From the NCBI GenBank assembly GCA_964387275.1, contig CAYLVW010000002.1, forward strand, positions 1 through 58,236: 58,236 nt of DNA, written 5' to 3'. The first letter of the stretch is position 1. Each line of letters starts with the position of its first letter. Position numbers and translations under genes: made by a program. Below the pieces are notes generated by a model, which saw nothing but the letters and a program-made list of their open reading frames with translations, did no database searches and was not told the DNA's origin. Positions 2,274 to 46,129 of the stretch are shown here, piece by piece. The DNA comes from an uncultured Candidatus Saccharibacteria bacterium. GTDB taxonomy: Bacteria; Patescibacteriota; WWE3; UBA101185; UBA10185.

Positions 2274-3353
2274 TTAAACTCTTTCTAGCTTCTGATACCA
2301 TTCAGGCATCATCTTAAATACCTCTACTTGTCTCCTGACAGCCTCATAAAGGTCCATTTTTGGGTTATAACCTAGTATTTTTCTTGCTTTTGAAATATCT
2401 GCGCTAGATGCAACATCTCCCTTATCAACATCAACTATCTCGTAAGGTACAGGCTTGCCATAAGCTTTTTCAATAGCGTCAAACCAATCTTTAATAGATC
2501 TTGGGTCAGAAGTACCTATATTAAAAACCTCAAAATTCGTTTGAAAATCTAGGCACATTAAGAGACCCTTTACCTGGTCATCTATATAAGTACTGTCTTT
2601 CGCAGAATCCAAACCTCTTTTTCCGTAAATCTGGACCTTGCGGTTATTGTGGGTGTAGTTTATTGCTCTTTGCATCATCATTCCATAAGGTCTTTGCAAG
2701 GGCCCATATATTGGTCCAAAAATTCTATCCACAACAACAGGAAGGCCGTAAACTACAGAGGCTGCATGACAAAGCACTTCTCCTGCTACTTTGGTAGCAC
2801 CATATGGAGAAACAGCCCTCATAACATTATCTTCTTCGGTTACCTTCTTATCAGCTCTATCTCCATACACTGAAGACGAAGAACCAAATACAACCTTCTT
2901 TACCCCTGTCTCCTTACTGACATTCAGAATATTAATTGTCCCATCAACATTTACAGATGTATAAAGTCTTGGATCTTTAGTAGAAAGAGGAACACCAGCC
3001 ATAGCGGCCAGGTGAACAACCGCATCAAACTTTTCTTTCTCAAATAGGTATTCCAAAAAATCATGATTAACAATATCTCCCTCAACAAAATTAAAATAAC
3101 CTCTCTTATTTGAAATGGTATCAGGATAATAACTCTCTAATTTTTCATAAATCTGGGTAACAACATTACCGGGAAAAAATTGGGGTTTCCTGCCTGATGC
3201 TAAATTTATCAAATCAACATTAAACTCCTTGCATTCCCTTTGATAGTAGGAATTAAAGTTATCAAACCCCACCACATCATCCCCTCGCCAAATTAAAGCA
3301 CGGGAAACGTAACTACCTATAAATCCTGCTGCACCTGTTACAAATACTTTCAT
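2274..3353 (-). CDS. NAD-dependent sugar-nucleotide epimerase/dehydratase (extended SDR)
   Basis: MKVFVTGAAGFIGS Rossmann motif and an intact YGATK (YxxxK) motif. ATG at 3353 is preferred over the track's TTG at 3362. Confidence 0.85.
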   Translation of the reverse strand: MKVFVTGAAGFIGSYVSRALIWRGDDVVGFDNFNSYYQRECKEFNVDLINLASGRKPQFFPGNVVTQIYEKLESYYPDTISNKRGYFNFVEGDIVNHDFLEYLFEKEKFDAVVHLAAMAGVPLSTKDPRLYTSVNVDGTINILNVSKETGVKKVVFGSSSSVYGDRADKKVTEEDNVMRAVSPYGATKVAGEVLCHAASVVYGLPVVVDRIFGPIYGPLQRPYGMMMQRAINYTHNNRKVQIYGKRGLDSAKDSTYIDDQVKGLLMCLDFQTNFEVFNIGTSDPRSIKDWFDAIEKAYGKPVPYEIVDVDKGDVASSADISKARKILGYNPKMDLYEAVRRQVEVFKMMPEWYQKLERV

Positions 3354-3408
3354 ACTGCACAATTATAACATCTTTTCATTAACCAAAAACCGCGATAACA
3401 TTATAACT

Positions 3409-4398
3409 ATGAGAATATTAATTACTGGATGCGCAGGATTTATTGGCTATAGTTTAACAAAAAAAGTTTTAGAACTTGGTCACGAGGTTATAGGTATTGA
3501 TAACTTAAGTGAATATGAGGGCATCCCAAGTTTAAAATATAAAAATATAAAAGAGTTGTCAGACCACTCAAAATTTGAATTTATAAAGCTGGATGTCGTA
3601 AATGATGCGTTTACTTCCATTCTTAAAGGTAAGAAGTTGGACATAACAGTACACCTTGCAGGCAGAGACCTCTTTTATAATGATTCAGATGACCTAAAAT
3701 ATACCCCATTCCTTATAACTAATGTTATTGGAACTTCAAAGATTTTTGAACTTGCAAATGAACTTGGTTCCAAAAGATTCATCTATGCCTCTACTTATAG
3801 TGTATATGGACAGGTAAAAAAACAAGTCCTAACTGAAAAAAAGATACTACCAAAACCTATATCTCCCCATGGGGCGTCAAAGCTTGCGGCAGAACAAATA
3901 GTATATTTTATGAGCAATTACTTCAAAATACCGTCACTAATTCTTAGAATGTTCACTGTGTATGGACCCGGAATGAAAACATACACGTTCATACCATTAG
4001 TAATACGTAAACTTCTAAATAACCAACCAATAGATTTCTCACATTCAAAATATGCTACCAGGGATTTTGTATTCGTAGATGATGTAGTTAATTCAATAAT
4101 TAGCGGCTTCAAAAAAAGGCTTAAATTTCAAACTATTAATATTGCTTCAGGTGATAGCTACACAATGGAAGAAATAGCACTAAAAATAGCTAAAATCATG
4201 AATAAAGATAAGTCACTGGTTCAGTTTAATAAGCACAAAAAAGATTTCACAAAAATTGTTATGAAGGATGCAAAAGCTAATATTGATAGAGCAAGAAAAG
4301 TGTTAGATTACCAATCTAATGTTGGGATAGATGAAGGACTTGAAAAAACTGTGAAATGGTTTTTAGATAATCAACATTTACTTGAAGGCATTAAATGA
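3409..4398 (+). CDS. NAD-dependent epimerase/dehydratase family protein with non-canonical HxxxK motif
   Basis: MRILITGCAGFIGYS glycine-rich motif and extended-SDR length. The catalytic motif position reads SPHGASK instead of YxxxK. Confidence 0.8.
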   Translation: MRILITGCAGFIGYSLTKKVLELGHEVIGIDNLSEYEGIPSLKYKNIKELSDHSKFEFIKLDVVNDAFTSILKGKKLDITVHLAGRDLFYNDSDDLKYTPFLITNVIGTSKIFELANELGSKRFIYASTYSVYGQVKKQVLTEKKILPKPISPHGASKLAAEQIVYFMSNYFKIPSLILRMFTVYGPGMKTYTFIPLVIRKLLNNQPIDFSHSKYATRDFVFVDDVVNSIISGFKKRLKFQTINIASGDSYTMEEIALKIAKIMNKDKSLVQFNKHKKDFTKIVMKDAKANIDRARKVLDYQSNVGIDEGLEKTVKWFLDNQHLLEGIK

Positions 4399-5237
4399 GA
4401 CCTGATATTGATACTTTGTCAAAAATATATGAAGGTTATGATGAAACATCCATAAAATCTATGGCTAGGAGCGGCTGGAGAGAATATTACGAAAAAAAAA
4501 TTGGCACCAGATTTCTTGACGAAGGTGGAATTAAATATTATCAAGAACGCCGTGAGGCAGAAAACAGGCCATACTTAGAAACAATATTAGATAACGTAGA
4601 GTCTCCCACGGATGTCGTTGGAGTAGTAGGTTCGGGAGCAGGACTTGAAATTGTATATCTGTTAAAAAAGGGTGTTAAAACTATTGGCTTAGATAATGAA
4701 GATGTATTCCCCCTAGTACGACAAAATGCCAAGTTGGCAAACGTAAGTGAAAGCATGTTGTTTGGTTTTACTGATCTTAGAAAGTTAGGGCTAGCAGACC
4801 AGTCGCTAAGGGTATTAGCTAGTCATGGGACCCTAGAACATTTTGAGAGAGATGAAGACATTGTGGACGCAATAATAGAAGGTTGCAGAGTTGCAAATAC
4901 CTATATTTTTGTAGTTCCCCTAGAGTTAGCGGGAAATTTAGATGCAAGGAGATCCTTAAATCTGTCAATGCCGACTGAAAATAATACAACAGGAAATTTC
5001 GGAAATGAAGTTTATAAAAATGGCACAGAGTGGGAATCTGTTATTCAAACAGCAATAAAAAAAATGCGGCAAGAAGGAGTTGAGATTACAACTGAAAATC
5101 CATTTGGATACTGGATCCCAGAATATGGAGATACAAAAAAACATCCACAAACTAGGGAAGAAGCAGAAAGATTGTACAAATCAGGTAAAAGCATTTATGG
5201 AGTTTACGTCTTAAAAAGAACCCATAACACCCCATAG
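4395..5237 (+). CDS. Probable class I SAM-dependent methyltransferase
   Basis: ATGA start/stop overlap with the upstream SDR gene. VVGVVGSGAGLE...TIGLDNE resembles methyltransferase motifs I/II. Confidence 0.5.
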   Translation: MRPDIDTLSKIYEGYDETSIKSMARSGWREYYEKKIGTRFLDEGGIKYYQERREAENRPYLETILDNVESPTDVVGVVGSGAGLEIVYLLKKGVKTIGLDNEDVFPLVRQNAKLANVSESMLFGFTDLRKLGLADQSLRVLASHGTLEHFERDEDIVDAIIEGCRVANTYIFVVPLELAGNLDARRSLNLSMPTENNTTGNFGNEVYKNGTEWESVIQTAIKKMRQEGVEITTENPFGYWIPEYGDTKKHPQTREEAERLYKSGKSIYGVYVLKRTHNTP

Positions 5238-5315
5238 TTGACAAAACTGGTATACCTATTTTACAATGCTTCCGTAGCAATTCTGCTATATCACTTTTGC
5301 CAAAGGGAGGGCAAA

Positions 5316-6083
5316 ATGCTGGTAGTACAGCGGATCTGGGGACCTCAGGGTGGTGAATTGGTACGACGTAACTATAATGCTTTTCAAAAATCTTTAGGAT
5401 CACTTCCATTTAAAGTTAATTATAGTGTATGTACATTTCCTGGGGATCCTGCTGAAAATATGGCTTTAGAGCTAGAAGTAGGTGTCATCCGAGCTAATCT
5501 AAAGAGTTTTAGTGACTCAATGAACCAGATCCTTGGAGCGACACTACAGAAAAGAGAGTTCCTACTGATCTACTCTGGTGATGTTGAAATAGGACAAGAT
5601 CTAATTATGGAAGCTCTAGCGAGCTTTCAGGATAACGAGGAAACAGATTCCCATGCGTATACGTACTCTTGGCAGGTGCAGGGTATGGGTAATGATGGAA
5701 GCCATCTTGGACTTATGGGATACAACACCGCTATGATGTATAACACCAGGCTCTTGGTGCTTCTTAAGTCCCAAGTGTGGTACCCAGAATATGTGGATAA
5801 TGGAATGCTAGGAGAGGAGGAGTTTGAGATTGAGGGTCAAAAAGAAAAAGTCCCACTTGGGGGTGCTGAAGAGCCTACTTTCCTACTTGGAGTTGCTAAA
5901 CAGGATCCATACGCGTACTCAATACATAATGCAGGCGTGATCCTTCCCACAACTGCTCAAACTGGAACAGATGTTAAGTTTTCGTTCAAACTTGCACGCA
6001 AGAAGCGCATGGCTGAAATTTACGCTGCCAAGTTTGGACTTACAGTGGAGGATGCACTTAGGCACTACGTTGTGCTTCGCTAG
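5316..6083 (+). CDS. Uncharacterised protein X (paralogue of 7765..8544; weakly GT-A-like)
   Basis: Track ORF starts at TTG 5238. ATG 5316 is preceded by AAGGGAGGG at a 4-nt spacing. Shares the blocks GNDGSHLG..YNTAMM and YPEYVDNGMLG with X'. Confidence 0.6.
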   Translation: MLVVQRIWGPQGGELVRRNYNAFQKSLGSLPFKVNYSVCTFPGDPAENMALELEVGVIRANLKSFSDSMNQILGATLQKREFLLIYSGDVEIGQDLIMEALASFQDNEETDSHAYTYSWQVQGMGNDGSHLGLMGYNTAMMYNTRLLVLLKSQVWYPEYVDNGMLGEEEFEIEGQKEKVPLGGAEEPTFLLGVAKQDPYAYSIHNAGVILPTTAQTGTDVKFSFKLARKKRMAEIYAAKFGLTVEDALRHYVVLR

Positions 6084-6098
6084 TATATACGTTTTCAG

Positions 6099-6137
6099 AC
6101 ACATAAATCGATTTGCAAGCCGATGTGTGTTTGATTT
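6099..6137 (+). terminator. Hairpin plus T-rich tail after gene X; copy 1 of a conserved hairpin motif
   Basis: ACACAT..AAATCGATTTGCAAGCCG..ATGTGT followed by GTTTGATTT. The core is nearly identical to the hairpin at 7660..7707. Confidence 0.5.
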
Positions 6138-6351
6138 CGTAAGTTAGTTGCTACCTAACATGTAAATGTTGGTATTCCCATCAATTATTAACAAGTAATT
6201 GATGGGCTCACTTTAGGCCATAAGAACTCCCAGCAGCCCTACTGGGGCTGTGAGGTTTAATTAGTCTTCCAGCATAAACAAACAGTTTAAGCAAAGACAC
6301 ATAAATTATGGTTTGAAGTGAGCAAAATCAGCTCTATCAAAAAGGAAGATC

Positions 6352-6939
6352 ATGAACGAGCAACATATTAGAAACGCCCGTTTATTTAATCAATGGAAAA
6401 AAGAACGCCTTATCGATCGTAGTGGGTACATGGATTATAACTCAAAAGCAGTCGAAATCTTTCGTTACTTCTTAAAGCATAACCCAAAAGCAAGGCTCAC
6501 TATCTGGCTTAGGAACTTTAATCATTTGAGATGTGAATATACACAAGGAAGATTTAATGGATCAGTTGCCCTGGAAATTCCAGGAGTCAAAGGTTTCTTC
6601 ACTGACGTAGCACAAATCTATTTAAACCATCCTGATTTAGAGGAAATTTTCGATGAGCAGCTTTGGGTAACTTTGCTTACATCTGCAGATAAAGAAACTA
6701 AACTAACAAGTTTCGGGTTCTACTCTTTGGGTCAGACAATATCCTGGATGATGGGCCGTAGAACTACCCTCATACATCAATGGGGTAGTGGGGATCCTGA
6801 ATACGCAACATTTGATTCATATAACTTCTTCCCTTGGAGAAGTAAGAAAAAATTAGAGCGTACTAAACCATACAGGGGATATAAAGATATCTGGGGAATT
6901 TTCTCTGAAAGAGACCTGAAAAACCTATTTGGTTTATAA
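6352..6939 (+). CDS. Uncharacterised soluble protein Y (195 aa)
   Basis: ORF preceded by AAGGAAG 4 nt upstream of the ATG. No TM segment or recognisable motif. Weak shared blocks with Y'. Confidence 0.6.
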   Translation: MNEQHIRNARLFNQWKKERLIDRSGYMDYNSKAVEIFRYFLKHNPKARLTIWLRNFNHLRCEYTQGRFNGSVALEIPGVKGFFTDVAQIYLNHPDLEEIFDEQLWVTLLTSADKETKLTSFGFYSLGQTISWMMGRRTTLIHQWGSGDPEYATFDSYNFFPWRSKKKLERTKPYRGYKDIWGIFSERDLKNLFGL

Positions 6940-7047
6940 AGTAGCTAATTCGTTGTTGATATGACAAAGTGATTTTGCCAATCACAATATTAGATCTTCT
7001 CAACAAGGTATAAAATCAATTCCACAAAACAGATGTAGGAGAAAAAC

Positions 7048-7632
7048 ATGGAAAACACTAGAGAACTTACTTCGTACATTCAGCATTATATTTCTATGGG
7101 ACTATTTGATGAAACTGGCGAATCAACTAAAACTGCTGATGGTAGAAAAACAGCAGAAGCCTTTAGACATATTATGTCTCTAACAGACAGACGAAATCGA
7201 TTCGGTATGGTCATTCCCAGAAATTCATTTAACAATGAGGGAAATCCCGGACATAGAAGATTCTTGGGTGTAAATTTTTATGTTGCACTACCAAAAGCTT
7301 TGAGGTCTCTTAACCTTCAGTCGGTGCATCTAACTGATCCAATGTGGGAAATTGTATTTTCAGGCTCAGAATATATCAGATTAAAAGAGGCACTTTATGG
7401 GATTACTGATGCCAGTAATGTTATAACTGCTAGAAGATTATTTAAACTTGGTTCTATGATAACAAACATGATGTGCCGACCCTTTTGGATTACACATTTC
7501 ACTGTTACTTCTAAGAAGTCGTTTAGAGAGGTTCATAGGTATAAGTTTGCACCTGGGATAATAAGTGCACTAACGCCACGATTTTATTCTGACGTCCCTG
7601 TAGGAAATGTTTGGGAAGAGCTAGGCTGGTAA
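7048..7632 (+). CDS. Uncharacterised soluble protein Y' (194 aa), probable distant paralogue of Y
   Basis: TAGGAGA 6 nt upstream of the ATG. Same length as Y. Shared blocks KTAEAFRHI / KAVEIFRYF and LGSMITNMMCR / LGQTISWMMGR. Confidence 0.6.
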   Translation: MENTRELTSYIQHYISMGLFDETGESTKTADGRKTAEAFRHIMSLTDRRNRFGMVIPRNSFNNEGNPGHRRFLGVNFYVALPKALRSLNLQSVHLTDPMWEIVFSGSEYIRLKEALYGITDASNVITARRLFKLGSMITNMMCRPFWITHFTVTSKKSFREVHRYKFAPGIISALTPRFYSDVPVGNVWEELGW

Positions 7633-7659
7633 TAATACTAGCTATATCCTAATACTAAA

Positions 7660-7707
7660 GGGCTACACAAATCGATGCTTTGCAAGCCGATGTGTAGCCC
7701 GTTTTTA
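7660..7707 (+). terminator. Rho-independent terminator after Y'; copy 2 of the conserved hairpin motif
   Basis: GGGCTACACA (7660-7669) pairs with TGTGTAGCCC (7691-7700), followed by GTTTTTATTTT. The inner sequence AAATCGATGCTTTGCAAGCCGA matches copy 1. Confidence 0.8.
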
Positions 7708-7728
7708 TTTTACCAAGTTAAGTCAAGC

Positions 7729-7757
7729 TTTACACATTCAGAGCTTTTAATTAGCAT
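7729..7757 (+). promoter_or_regulatory. Putative sigma-70 promoter for X' (TTTACA-17-TAGCAT)
   Basis: TTTACA 7729-7734, 17-nt spacer, TAGCAT 7752-7757. ATG 7765 lies 7 nt after the -10 with no SD, which implies a leaderless mRNA. Confidence 0.4.
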
Positions 7758-7764
7758 ATTAGTA

Positions 7765-8544
7765 ATGCCCATAAAAACTATCTCAAAACTTGCCATAGGC
7801 TTCAAAGCTCTATCTGATTCTAAAAACAGCATTACATCAGAACAAATTGAATATTATGTAAAATACCTAAGAACTTTAAAACCAGGTAAAGTAACGGTAG
7901 TAACGCTTAAGGAGGATCCTCTTCTGCCAACGTTAAAAAACGTTTGCGATGAAGTAATCGAACTTGATAGAGAAAACTACACATACTCTGGTACCGCTAA
8001 AACTCTCTATCAAGCCTGTAAAGACTATAATCTACTATTTGTTTCTATTGGGGTAGAGATACAAAACTGGCAGTTACATCACGGATTACAAATACTAAGT
8101 AACCATAATTTATATACAATAGGATGGAGAATTTTATCTCAGGAAAATGATGGATCTTATCTTGGTAAACTTTCGTATCATACATGTATGCTACTAAAAC
8201 GCGGGTTCTACGAAATTTTTGAACAAGCGGGAGGATTTCCTGAGTATGTTGAAAATGGAATACTAGGAAACCTAAGCTTCAAAATAAATAACGAGGTAAA
8301 AAACTTTAGAGTTGGGGGTCAAGAAGAATTAGCTCTACAACTTCGTATATACAAAAAATTCAAGGGTAAAAAGACCAAAATGTTTGGGCATATTAAACAC
8401 TATGGAGTTGATTTTCCGGTAAAACTTGGTATGGGAGTTAGCTACGATGAAAAAATAATACGAAAAGTTCTTGTAGCAGATATATATAGAATGACGGAAG
8501 AGGTAGACCCGGAGGATTTTATGGAAGCTTGGACAATACTATAA
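7765..8544 (+). CDS. Uncharacterised protein X' (paralogue of 5316..6083)
   Basis: The track start 7675 lies inside the terminator hairpin. The next in-frame ATG, 7765 (MPIKTISK), is preferred. Blocks ENDGSYLG..YHTCML and FPEYVENGILG. Confidence 0.6.
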   Translation: MPIKTISKLAIGFKALSDSKNSITSEQIEYYVKYLRTLKPGKVTVVTLKEDPLLPTLKNVCDEVIELDRENYTYSGTAKTLYQACKDYNLLFVSIGVEIQNWQLHHGLQILSNHNLYTIGWRILSQENDGSYLGKLSYHTCMLLKRGFYEIFEQAGGFPEYVENGILGNLSFKINNEVKNFRVGGQEELALQLRIYKKFKGKKTKMFGHIKHYGVDFPVKLGMGVSYDEKIIRKVLVADIYRMTEEVDPEDFMEAWTIL

Positions 8545-8559: not shown

Positions 8560-8883
8560 CTACTTTAGTTTTCTCTCAGAAATATTTGGGTCTCTGCCAT
8601 AATTGGGTAGCTGCTGCTTATCTACTGACAAATTACCGTTTGCCCAGTTAAGGATATTAGTAACTACTGCTCCTACCTTTAAACCGGTAAAAGATTCTCC
8701 AGGACCTTTATTAAAATCAAACATTACATCTTTTAATCTGATGTTCCTGATTTCAAGCAACTTCTTAATTGAGTTGGTGATGTCAATATCACCAGATTGC
8801 TCGTCCAAAACTTCCCCACTTGAATTAGTTAGTACTATTTTTTTTTCGTACCTTTTAGAAGAATCAATATATATTAAATACAT
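8560..8883 (-). CDS. tsaB: Truncated TsaB/YeaZ-like protein (N-terminal half only)
   Basis: GPGESFTGLKVG matches the TsaB GPGSFTGLRIG motif. Only 107 aa long. Overlaps tsaE by 10 nt. Confidence 0.6.
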   Translation of the reverse strand: MYLIYIDSSKRYEKKIVLTNSSGEVLDEQSGDIDITNSIKKLLEIRNIRLKDVMFDFNKGPGESFTGLKVGAVVTNILNWANGNLSVDKQQLPNYGRDPNISERKLK

Positions 8884-9299
8884 TTTATTTTCCTAATACT
8901 TTCAGAAACACTCTCAAAATATATCTTAACAATATTTCCTTTAATATAAGAAATAAACTTATCAGGCCATTCTATTACAGTAATAGAATCGGAAGAAATC
9001 ATTTCAGATAATCCCAAATCAACAAACTCTATGTAATTTGTAAGTCTATACAGATCTAAATGATTAATTAGCTTAATTGAACCTATGTTAGGAGACTTGT
9101 TATATTTACGATGTAAAACAAAAGTAGGACTCTGCACTCTATCACTAAATCCCAACTCAGAAACCAGAAAATTTGTAAAAGTTGTTTTTCCAGCACCAAG
9201 ATCTCCAAACAACAATACTATCTCGCCACCTTTAAGTCTCGAGGCTATTTTGTGAGCAAACTCTTTAGTTTCTTGGGTAGATGAGGATATAACTTCCAT
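8874..9299 (-). CDS. tsaE: tRNA threonylcarbamoyladenosine biosynthesis ATPase TsaE
   Basis: P-loop GDLGAGKTTF followed by SPTF and the DLYRL-type motifs typical of YjeE/TsaE. 141 aa. Confidence 0.85.
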   Translation of the reverse strand: MEVISSSTQETKEFAHKIASRLKGGEIVLLFGDLGAGKTTFTNFLVSELGFSDRVQSPTFVLHRKYNKSPNIGSIKLINHLDLYRLTNYIEFVDLGLSEMISSDSITVIEWPDKFISYIKGNIVKIYFESVSESIRKIKCI

Positions 9300-44616: not shown

Positions 44617-44667
44617 AATTTGACCTATAAATATCCAGGATTTACAATACCGCAGAAAGGAAAAAGG

Positions 44668-45195
44668 ATGGGCATCAGATTCGTCCCAACTGACAGTCTT
44701 TATAACTATAGGCATAAACTTAATAGATCAAAAATCCCAGTAGAACTCCTTGCAGTTACTGCAGGTGTCTCATACGACCCTAAGAGGTTGTGCAGAAAAT
44801 TTTTCCCATCACTAGAACCAGGCAGTAATGGACATGGTGCTTTATATACATGGAAGTATATTGAATTGGCTGCAGCTATTAGAGCTAAAGACCTTGTAAG
44901 AGCGGATCTGCAAGACCCTGAAATGCAGGAACTTACATCTGTATTGTATGAGCTTCCAATGACAATGGACATTGTTGCTGAGGAAGCGATTGAAGCACTA
45001 AGATGGCTAGAACTTGCATGTTTGGATGAGAATAATAGATCTAGGGATTTAACGCAGGCTATTAGAAAGGCAAAGGGTGTTTACAATGACCCAATAGGGC
45101 AAAAGACTATGGATACTATCCAGATTTTTTTGGAAAATTTTTACTCAGTACAGGGAAACGTGGATAGAACTGTGGAGTTGTGTCTTTTTTCTTAG
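44668..45195 (+). CDS. Orphan protein inserted between yidD and yidC
   Basis: Track ORF starts at TTG 44620. ATG 44668 is preceded by GAAAGGAAAAAGG. No TM or recognisable motif. G+C-richer than its neighbours by eye. Confidence 0.5.
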   Translation: MGIRFVPTDSLYNYRHKLNRSKIPVELLAVTAGVSYDPKRLCRKFFPSLEPGSNGHGALYTWKYIELAAAIRAKDLVRADLQDPEMQELTSVLYELPMTMDIVAEEAIEALRWLELACLDENNRSRDLTQAIRKAKGVYNDPIGQKTMDTIQIFLENFYSVQGNVDRTVELCLFS

Positions 45196-45212
45196 TGTTA
45201 CTGAATTGATTC

Positions 45213-45243
45213 GGCGGCTGCCTTATTTTATAAGGCAGCCGCC
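45213..45243 (+). terminator. Perfect 13-bp GC-rich hairpin after the orphan ORF (no clear U-tract)
   Basis: GGCGGCTGCCTTA / TAAGGCAGCCGCC with a TTTTA loop. Confidence 0.5.
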
Positions 45244-45340
45244 TCTCTACATCAAAAACATTGCTTACAAAACCCAATAATAGTAAACTAGCGCGAGCTA
45301 TAATTTCGTTATCGAGTAAAAACTTGATAACATATCATAT

Positions 45341-46129
45341 ATGTTTGCAAACATTTGGAACACAACGTTAATCAACCCAATACTAAATTCCCTAGTATTA
45401 TTCTATAAATACACTGGAAATCTAGGCGTAGCAATAATACTTTTAACACTCCTTATAAGACTCATACTTTACCCTGTAATGTTACCTTCCCTTAAGACTA
45501 TGAAAAAACAAAGAGACCTACAACCAGAACTGGACAAGTTAAAAAAGAAGTATAGCTATGATAAAAGGAAATTAGCAGAAGAACAAATGAAACTTTTCAA
45601 GGAACATGGTATATCTCCAGGCCTTGGGTGTTTTACTCAACTCGGAACAATAGTTGTAATTATAGCCCTGTATCAAGTAATATCAGGGTTTGCATTACAC
45701 TTTAATGTCGATGCAACAAATGCATCTCTATACTTTGATTTTCTAAAACTTTCTACTAATGAGGTCATAAATACTTCATTCGGATATCTAAACCTGAGCA
45801 AACCCGACCCCTATTTCATACTAGCCATACTTTCAGGTCTACTTCAATTTGTACAGTCTAAAATGACCTTTCCCTATGTTAATCTGGCAGAAAAAGTGGC
45901 AGAGAAAACACCTGACAAAACTGACGATCTAGCTTATAATATGCAGCAACAGATGTTGTATACCATGCCAGTTATGAACTTTATAATTGGTATATCCTTG
46001 CCCTCAGGTGTTGTCTTATACATACTGGTTACTACAATATTCTCAATTGTCCAAACTTACTTAGTAACAGGCCTTGGAGGGGTAACTCCTTGGATAAAGA
46101 AACTAGGCCTCGAAAAGATCATTAAATAA
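45341..46129 (+). CDS. yidC: Membrane protein insertase YidC (short form)
   Basis: 262 aa. Conserved LPSLKTMKKQRDLQPELDKLKKKY helical-hairpin region and five TM helices. Confidence 0.85.
   Translation: MFANIWNTTLINPILNSLVLFYKYTGNLGVAIILLTLLIRLILYPVMLPSLKTMKKQRDLQPELDKLKKKYSYDKRKLAEEQMKLFKEHGISPGLGCFTQLGTIVVIIALYQVISGFALHFNVDATNASLYFDFLKLSTNEVINTSFGYLNLSKPDPYFILAILSGLLQFVQSKMTFPYVNLAEKVAEKTPDKTDDLAYNMQQQMLYTMPVMNFIIGISLPSGVVLYILVTTIFSIVQTYLVTGLGGVTPWIKKLGLEKIIK

Follow-up and report, generated by a model that had tools for sequence, protein, structure and literature searches.

Conserved surface-polysaccharide loci, such as those for O antigen and capsule, contain variable glycosyltransferase genes of atypical G+C content. 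We describe here a locus that resembles them in part, located in a 58,236-nucleotide (nt) stretch of DNA from an uncultured Candidatus Saccharibacteria bacterium (contig CAYLVW010000002.1 of assembly GCA_964387275.1; the whole stretch is called the window below). At the end of a sugar cluster in this window lie four consecutive plus-strand genes in the order X-Y-Y'-X' (5316 to 8544). As is generally known of O-antigen and capsule loci, conserved sequence surrounds a hypervariable gene, here the putative transferase gene X, and there are signs of recombination at the boundaries of this gene. In contrast to those loci, the gene occupying this position (the slot) is G+C-rich in a low-G+C genome, and the variable part consists of one gene only, served by a conserved promoter and hairpin terminator of its own. 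We read the quartet as a composite, at a probability of roughly 0.6: two paralogs of a GT-A-type family, X' and X, in the sugar cluster; a variable slot that holds X; and an insertion carrying the orphan genes Y and Y'.

The core features of GT-A glycosyltransferases, namely the DxD and xED motifs and a C-terminal His (C-His), are used here as defined by Taujale et al. (PMC7185993), who also describe independent loss of DxD alongside loss of the metal requirement. DxD loss together with metal independence is on record for GT14 and bacterial GT6 (PMC7185993; see also PMC3516806 and PMC3961637). The known enzymes closest to a model of X are those of GT81, GpgS (4dec/4ddz) and MpgS (3f1y), with about 270 aligned columns and query-based TM scores (TMq) of 0.54 to 0.56. 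They are soluble single-domain GT-A enzymes of a size similar to that of X, but the identity is 10 to 12% and there is no sequence-profile match; moreover, GT81 enzymes are metal-dependent and retaining and have a DxD motif, whereas DxD is missing from X' and from the family consensus, in which the motifs GGxEE and KxxRK are conserved instead. The polyprenyl-phosphate glycosyltransferases of GT2 (GtrB, 5eke/5ekp, and the GT2 genes of the window) have the GT-A fold in common with X, and those of the window share one cluster with X and X'. In a profile alignment that was not significant, LLIYSGDVEI of X fell on LTLSADLEI of the window GT2 at the DxD position. Unlike GT2 enzymes, X and X' have no transmembrane helices and no match to Pfam Glycos_transf_2, and the Asp of the GT2 enzyme is replaced by Gly in most members of their family. 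For their part, the metal-independent GT-A enzymes (GT14; bacterial GT6, e.g., 4ayj) have the fold without DxD, and 4ayj was among the structural matches of X. However, no sequence relationship links them to X, the metal independence of X' is a prediction, and X keeps one Asp (S87-G88-D89).

Homology and size of the X family

All four open reading frames (ORFs) picked out in an earlier sequence-only reading of the window were present, on the plus strand and in the order X-Y-Y'-X', as was every shared peptide block quoted there. X (5316 to 6083) encodes a protein of 255 amino acids (aa) and X' (7765 to 8544) one of 259 aa. Their paralogy, also claimed in that reading, was borne out by BLASTP (E = 3e-17, 29% identity over 150 aa) and by Smith-Waterman alignment (z = 27.5, 1000 shuffles). 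The ATG start of X is preceded by the Shine-Dalgarno sequence AGGGAGG and agrees with that of a 255-aa gene predicted on a separate, independent contig. Hydrophobic segments are absent from all four proteins; X is acidic and X' mildly basic, and the isoelectric points of Y and Y' are 9.4 and 9.7, respectively.

X, Y, Y' and X' gave no match in Pfam, NCBIfam, PHROG or PADLOC. None of 25 family members (0/25) matched Pfam, and the X-family profile matched no PDB sequence, so that the description of X and X' as unrecognized proteins still stands. When 1.84 billion representatives were searched exhaustively with the family profile, 28 relatives were obtained at E ≤ 0.001, counted as clusters at 50% identity. 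The word-index protein search was nearly blind to the family: X as the query returned only a 96%-identical allele, and a 25-sequence family profile returned two proteins only. Within the window the profile search found exactly two members, X and X'. Sequence patterns of the X' clade were not found in GTDB genomes, by patterns that would also miss the X'-type sequence of locus L021.

Alignment A3, which comprises 25 of the 28 relatives and is numbered here as in X, showed conserved residues along the whole protein. The N-terminal half contains R6-x-x-G at the end of strand 1, T40, L-x-x-S87-x-G-V and G-W119, while N126-D-G-S...G132...Y136-N-T and P-x-x-V-x-N162-G-x-x-G166 are found in the middle, and G182-G-x-E185-E186 (GGxEE) and K225-x-x-R228-K229...Y236 (KxxRK) in the C-terminal part. 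Together with the structural model presented below, these data suggest that X and X' represent a rare, unannotated family of soluble GT-A-fold proteins without a canonical DxD, and a candidate for a new CAZy-type family.

Two very large proteins, P0022 (1550 aa) and P0029 (3433 aa), matched the X-family profile over a short portion of its length, in 7 to 8 repeated stretches at profile positions of about 140 to 183 and 75 to 128; possibly a repeat in these proteins imitates the NG..G/GG.EE region. A kinship between X and the methyltransferase encoded upstream, based on a DNA repeat and on the C-terminal WIPEYGD of the latter (WYPEYVD in X), was also considered and was dropped, as BLASTP showed nothing.

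Predicted fold and putative catalytic residues

The AlphaFold2 (AF2) model of X built on A3 reached a predicted local distance difference test (pLDDT) score of 91.3 and a predicted TM score (pTM) of 0.89. When it was compared with the PDB by Foldseek, GT81 MpgS and GpgS were the best matches (TMq 0.54 to 0.56, probability 1.0), and AvpGT, GtrB, GnT-I, EXTL2, LARGE1 and hyaluronan synthase were also retrieved; GT2, GT13 and GT64 enzymes matched with a probability of 1.0 and TM scores of 0.5 to 0.56. The search of BFVD rendered GT-A and GT2-like proteins of phages and giant viruses. In general, all top matches in both databases were GT-A glycosyltransferases (probability 1.0, TMq 0.5 to 0.57). 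Since the identity in these structural matches is about 10%, the model supports placement of X at the level of the GT-A superfamily and not in any known family. The loose GT-A likeness proposed from the sequence alone thus holds at the level of the fold.

The DxD position, after strand 4 (residues 83 to 86), is occupied by S87-G88-D89 in X and by S-I-G in X', compared with S-x-G-V (LxxSxGVxI) in the family consensus. That X' lacks the Asp of LLIYSGDVEI had been noticed correctly in the sequence-only reading; nearly all family members lack it likewise, and within the family alignment only X/P0001 and P0027 have Asp at this position. X, and not X', appears from this alignment to be the exception, the motif being no feature of the family. 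G182, G183, E185 and E186 were invariant or nearly so, and a helix of the model begins at residue 186; they were placed at the xED motif by the order of secondary-structure elements only. The family alignment contains no conserved C-terminal His, and K225, R228, K229 and Y236 are conserved there instead. Similarly, a GxG(T/S)R-type loop after strand 1 was not found in the family, which has R-x-x-G at the end of that strand.

According to this model, X and X' would be nucleotide-sugar-dependent transferases, possibly inverting and probably metal-independent. The donor would be bound by the N-terminal Rossmann half (R6, T40/D44 and S87), and the Glu pair of GGxEE, at the start of the following helix, would provide the catalytic base in the manner of an xED motif. 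KxxRK, on the C-terminal helix, would neutralize the diphosphate, replacing the DxD-bound metal. X' may form a linkage that is conserved, on a sugar which the neighboring short-chain dehydrogenase/reductase (SDR) and methyltransferase enzymes process, and X may add a strain-variable decoration. For both proteins these residue roles, the donor and the acceptor are predicted from the model.

The same nucleotide-diphospho-sugar-transferase fold might instead serve a different reaction, for instance that of a sugar-1-phosphate nucleotidyltransferase supplying a nucleoside diphosphate (NDP)-sugar to the SDR, methyltransferase and GT2 enzymes. The Foldseek matches included IspD/IspDF, a MobA-like protein and 3cgx ("putative nucleotide-diphospho-sugar transferase"); the conserved Arg-x-x-Gly right after strand 1, the conserved Lys and Arg residues and the lack of DxD in the family would fit such an enzyme, and no nucleotidyltransferase or obvious activating enzyme gene was seen in the conserved cluster. 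However, true glycosyltransferases dominated both fold searches, with 260 to 290 columns and TMq values of 0.52 to 0.57, whereas the IspD-type matches ranked 30th or lower, with a TMq of 0.35 to 0.37 only. Furthermore, the family does not have GxGxR in its proper form, and GGxEE at a helix start resembles the xED motif. We thus regard a nucleotidyltransferase as unlikely and prefer a glycosyltransferase role for X and X'.

Synteny and phylogeny of X and X'

The position of the quartet at the end of a sugar-modification cluster, as stated in the sequence-only reading, was confirmed. The cluster of the window contains two GtrB/ArnC-like GT2 genes, two SDR genes of the epimerase/dehydratase type (SDR362 and SDR329) and a class I methyltransferase-like gene, and the quartet adjoins it. 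The set formed by GT2b (the second GT2 gene, 1202 to 2185), SDR362, SDR329, the methyltransferase gene and an X'-type gene is kept in L005, L014/15, L016/17 and L021/22. X'-type orthologues showed 41 to 43% identity in L005, L014, L016 and L021, always within the same sugar cluster, and GT2b orthologues showed 55 to 58% in the same four loci. SDR362 orthologues reached 72 to 81% and SDR329 orthologues 41 to 56% in the relatives, while homologues of the methyltransferase were found at 33% identity in L014 and L021, every related cluster having a methyltransferase-like gene. An SDR gene lay no more than two genes away from the family member in all six non-chlamydial loci with readable neighbors (6/6).

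The backbone beside the cluster (tsaB, tsaE, VanZ...FtsX, FtsE...YceG) is syntenic in L005 and in L021/L022 (GCA_035480775.1), and the latter is syntenic with the window from the GT2 genes through YceG. Its gene order is methyltransferase, X'-type, X-type (P0014), a 67-aa ORF and tsaB; thus, the paralogs adjoin, with nothing like Y or Y' between them. L014 also holds both paralog types, again without a Y-like gene.

In a neighbor-joining tree X' grouped with P0003-P0005 and the 259-aa protein of L021 (41 to 43% identity), and X was placed on a separate long branch nearer to P0007/P0014 and the chlamydial clades. The identity of X was 36% to P0007, 30% to P0014 and 27 to 29% to X'. Given these separate clades, X and X' appear to be ancient paralogs, not local duplicates, that reside together in the cluster of several genomes, with no local duplication of an X-Y unit. 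X' would be the vertically inherited core copy and X the variable one, both within a lineage-wide envelope-sugar cluster.

The sequence-only reading had taken the quartet for a duplicated and diverged module of an enzyme and its partner. An ancestral X-Y unit would have been duplicated and rearranged to X-Y-Y'-X', Y and Y' being partners or specificity subunits. The four genes do lie on one strand as two pairs matched in length, there is a marginal similarity between Y and Y', and a duplicated terminator (T1/T2, see below) indicates that local duplication did occur. Nevertheless, X and X' were placed in different clades, L021 and L014 combine an X' orthologue with an X-type gene in the absence of any Y, and the G+C content of X and X' is unequal, only X being G+C-rich. 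The search for X-Y co-occurrence in other genomes that had been suggested as a check found none among the 23 fetched X-family loci (0/23 with a Y-like neighbor) or in the phage, metagenome and viral contigs searched, and Y and Y' themselves rendered no homologues. Taken together, these data make a duplicated module very improbable, and the composite of old paralogs and a later insertion is preferred.

Promoter, terminator and composition of the slot

The gene directly upstream of X (4395 to 5237, plus strand) encodes a class I S-adenosylmethionine (SAM)-methyltransferase-like protein of 280 aa (Pfam Methyltransf_11, E = 1.3e-4; score of 23 bits, cut-off 21.2). The slot promoter, TTGACA-N18-TACAAT (5238 to 5267, plus strand; 11 of 12 consensus positions), begins directly after its stop codon and is followed by a motif in the 5' untranslated region (UTR), AGCAATTCTGCTATA (5276 to 5290, plus strand), which is conserved in the slots of relatives. 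Promoter and UTR motif were found upstream of the variable gene in L021/22 (P0014), L005 (a 263-aa protein), L018 (P0007), L020 (P0018) and L017. On the other side, X is followed on the plus strand by the hairpin terminator T1 (6095 to 6142), with a stem-loop at 6095 to 6134 and then a U-rich tail, whose fold energy was -18.2 kcal/mol (z = -3.7). Hairpins homologous to T1 come after P0014 (L021), the 263-aa gene unk263 (L005) and P0018 (L020), and compensatory changes were seen at 10 of 11 base pairs across five sequences of this type.

The slot occupant was G+C-rich in each low-G+C relative; the X'-type genes had host composition. The G+C content at third codon positions (GC3) was 0.81 for P0014 (L021 6001-6762; background 0.26), 0.61 for P0018 (L020 528-1265), 0.56 for P0007 (L018 1572-2336) and 0.67 for the L005 occupant (4958-5749), against a background of 0.25 to 0.37. 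X showed the highest values among the 53 ORFs of the window, with a G+C content of 0.435 to 0.44 (z = 2.7) and a GC3 of 0.387 (z = 2.5; about 0.38 to 0.387, compared with 0.295 for the window). The sequence-only reading had described the whole region as G+C-richer than its flanks. This is so for X, and the nature of X as a G+C-rich slot occupant explains the observation for that gene alone; Y' and X' (G+C content of X', 0.344) are ordinary, and the GC3 of Y has a z of 1.6.

L019, a contig of a related strain, showed 97.5% nucleotide identity across X, promoter and terminator, and the ratio of nonsynonymous to synonymous substitution rates (dN/dS) between its X allele and that of the window was 0.40. 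The similarity stops exactly at window position 5229 (L019 46), at the methyltransferase stop codon, which forms the left edge of the slot, and the C terminus of the methyltransferase upstream in L019 is very different from that of the window. This sharp breakpoint at 5229 indicates recombination at the slot boundary. The high G+C content of the slot genes could be due to repeated foreign replacement or to biased gene conversion at a recombination hotspot. X would therefore be read as the present occupant of a slot with conserved promoter and hairpin terminator whose gene is replaced, or evolves very fast, in relatives.

A bolder version would make the promoter/hairpin bracket a cassette-exchange site into which foreign G+C-rich GT-A genes are swapped, with the hairpin as the recombination site and the T1...T2 arrangement around Y-Y' as the scar of the capture of a non-glycosyltransferase cassette. 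We consider it quite unlikely; if true, it would represent a new single-gene cassette system outside integrons, varying the surface glycan of small low-G+C bacteria. Integron attC sites were considered for T1/T2 and were discarded after an informal look, in which no GTTRRRY/RYYYAAC cores were seen by eye and no integrase was present among the ORFs examined at 1 to 14 kb.

Inspection by eye of the occupants of L005 (4958-5749) and L017 (1452-1940) showed R-x-x-G/N after the first strand, as well as LLYSSADV and VLYSPS, respectively; neither is detectably a member of the X family, and both may be extremely diverged GT-A relatives. The 263-aa occupant of L005, put forward as a family member by eye for its LLYSSADVRL, reached an hhalign probability of 4% and was not counted.

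Y and Y' and the history of their segment

Y (6352 to 6939, plus strand) encodes a basic orphan protein of 195 aa, and Y' (7048 to 7632, plus strand) one of 194 aa, possibly a very diverged tandem copy of the former. Both genes, like X, have clear Shine-Dalgarno sequences, AAGGAAG for Y and TAGGAG for Y'. Y' is followed by a second plus-strand hairpin terminator, T2 (7660 to 7711; hairpin at 7660 to 7700), with a fold energy of -22.1 kcal/mol (z = -3.65) and then GUUUUUAUUUU. A 17-mer of T2 (7679 to 7695) is identical to one of T1 (6112 to 6128), about 60 nt of weaker similarity accompany it, and there are only these two copies in the window. The flanking sequence known from the relatives is retained around T1 and missing around T2, which suggests that T2 was copied from T1, in part and recently. 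The gene order also differs: in three relatives the X'-type gene precedes the slot, and the window has the slot, Y, Y', T2 and X', with a promoter-like site 5' of X' at 7729 to 7757. On the simplest reading, a lineage-specific rearrangement or insertion introduced Y and Y' and gave rise to the second terminator; the Y-Y' segment of about 1.5 kb between T1 and its partial copy T2 most likely arrived by insertion.

As for the relation between Y and Y', their similar length suggested in the sequence-only reading that they are a second paralogous pair. The length similarity (195 versus 194 aa) stands; the homology is only suggestive, with a BLASTP E value of 0.01 at 19 to 21% identity. The local alignment score had a z of 3.97 and was reached by 3 of 1000 shuffles, and the global score had a z of 1.96. 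The alignment is collinear, and length and basic charge are common to both proteins. An old tandem duplication of one gene is plausible on these grounds. No cross-similarity of Y or Y' to X, X' or the methyltransferase was found.

The statement that Y and Y' match nothing recognizable was upheld, no family or homologue having been found. The word-index protein search with Y returned Y alone. Phage genomes, Joint Genome Institute (JGI) metagenome contigs and viral contigs contained no relatives of Y or Y', in searches that detect close relatives only, and none was present at the protein or DNA level in the 23 fetched X-family loci. The AF2 model of Y (input Y plus Y') had a pLDDT of 43.7 and is unreliable, and its Foldseek matches (best E = 0.036, probability ≤ 0.54) were taken as noise. 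Defense-system and phage readings were also rejected, with no PADLOC or PHROG match.

With no homologues and no confident fold, and no sequence variation among samples on which selection could be tested, Y and Y' might be chance ORFs or decayed remnants and not genes. The probability of a chance open frame of 195 codons at 36% G+C is, however, about 8e-7 per start, which gives an expectation of about 0.09 such ORFs in the whole window on both strands, so that two adjacent ones on the coding strand are very unlikely to be due to chance. In addition, both have good Shine-Dalgarno sequences, and the X-family profile found no trace of the family in the Y-Y' segment in any frame. That these are no genes is thus highly unlikely, and Y and Y' are treated here as orphan genes.

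The structured spacer upstream of Y

The spacer between X and Y (6084 to 6351, 268 nt) folded on the plus strand with an energy of -92.1 kcal/mol, compared with -54.3 ± 5.05 for shuffled sequences (z = -7.5); the minus strand was weaker (z = -4.7). When the fold energy was regressed on G+C, no other 268-nt window in the 58 kb was as structured as this one, including those that contain tRNAs. It includes a perfect 12-bp hairpin (6177 to 6206) and an 18-bp long-range stem (6206 to 6223 with 6306 to 6323). The spacer gave no Rfam match at E ≤ 1 and has no other copy within the window. Its non-coding part beyond the T1 stem-loop (6136 to 6351, plus strand) is, from folding, a candidate RNA element or leader of Y, which may control read-through into Y/Y', or may be a separate small RNA. 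A miniature inverted-repeat transposable element (MITE) was considered for the 18-nt inverted repeat (6206-6223/6306-6323) and rejected, as the window holds no other copies.

Such a leader raises the possibility that Y and Y' are tied to the locus, recruited either as acceptor proteins of X and X' or as regulators controlled via 6136 to 6351. They lie on the same strand as their neighbors and at short distances from them, the exceptionally structured spacer is directly upstream of Y, and contigs of four independent samples carry them with identical sequence. Upstream of Y and Y' there is no promoter that equals that of the slot (11/12) in strength, the site upstream of Y' (6961 to 6988) being a weak 9/12 promoter-like one, and expression may thus hinge on read-through from the X promoter. 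On the other hand, conservation of the two genes is limited to one species, their products could be given neither a fold nor a domain, and the relatives run the same cluster without them. Recruitment of Y and Y' therefore seems improbable to us, and we infer that they are passengers, not partners of X or X'.

Distribution of the family beyond the sugar cluster

The family is represented in a group of small low-G+C bacteria, for which the gene content of the window and its 36% G+C would suggest an uncultured organism with a small genome, and in Chlamydiota. A subgroup of the family carries N-terminal hydrophobic leaders. It comes from Chlamydiota metagenome-assembled genomes, one genome labeled Alphaproteobacteria and one "uncultured bacterium" (L008-L013); in the representative search, the often leader-bearing members were the proteins P0006, P0011, P0013, P0015, P0016 and P0019. 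The only chlamydial neighborhood examined, L012, contained F-box/leucine-rich repeat (LRR)-type proteins and a major facilitator superfamily (MFS) transporter, with no sugar genes nearby, and tblastn with the SDR, GT2 and methyltransferase proteins of the window matched none of the six loci L008-L013 (0/6). The context of L012 hints at a different, possibly host-directed, role. Since the chlamydial members lie outside a sugar context, the acceptor, and perhaps the biological role, would not be uniform across the family.

Assessment of the composite reading

Several of the observations weigh against the composite reading. The best structural matches of X have TM scores of 0.54 to 0.57 at about 10% identity, the residue roles were predicted from how secondary-structure elements follow one another in a model, and nucleotidyltransferases have the same fold. 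The chlamydial members have no sugar-gene context and often bear the hydrophobic leaders. Y and Y' lie between two glycan genes of the same strand, and read-through of T1 would co-express them with X. Finally, no same-species genome with an empty site, which would prove the insertion, was found.

The rare GT-A family may add a further case of metal-independent GT-A catalysis. A hypervariable, compositionally foreign transferase gene with conserved promoter and terminator would offer a tractable case in which to follow how surface glycans diversify in bacteria that are difficult to grow, to which are added two well-delimited orphan genes and one unusually structured RNA candidate upstream of Y. 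Current understanding is not overturned and the value is incremental, variable glycosyltransferases in surface-glycan loci being a familiar theme.

Neighboring genes and other features of the window

The sugar cluster begins on the minus strand with the two GT2 genes (211 to 1200 and 1202 to 2185), both GtrB/ArnC-like, of the polyprenyl-phosphate glycosyltransferase type. Their NCBIfam matches, to undecaprenyl-phosphate Ara4FN transferase (E = 4e-45 and 7e-36, respectively) and also to PgfS and AglJ, were all below the equivalog cut-offs. They are followed by SDR362 (2274 to 3362, minus strand) and, divergent from it, SDR329 (3409 to 4398, plus strand). Both are of the nucleotide-sugar epimerase/dehydratase type and matched GalE, RmlB, LegB and TviC of NCBIfam, in all cases under the cut-offs. 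To the right of X', the conserved backbone starts with a tsaB-like gene (8560 to 8883, minus strand) and tsaE (8874 to 9299, minus strand; NCBIfam TsaE, E = 2e-27, above the cut-off).

Two further observations concern parts of the window away from the quartet. After correction for G+C, the second most structured 268-nt window was 45092 to 45359 (z = -3.5), which bridges the intergenic space from the ORF 44620-45195 to the ORF 45341-46129 and in which the gathering score was reached by no Rfam family. At the other end, the first 500 nt of the window have a G+C content of 0.50 and a GC skew of -0.6, and a tract of about 110 nt of almost pure C (50 to 160), just downstream of the first GT2 gene and near the window edge, is probably a sequencing or assembly artifact.

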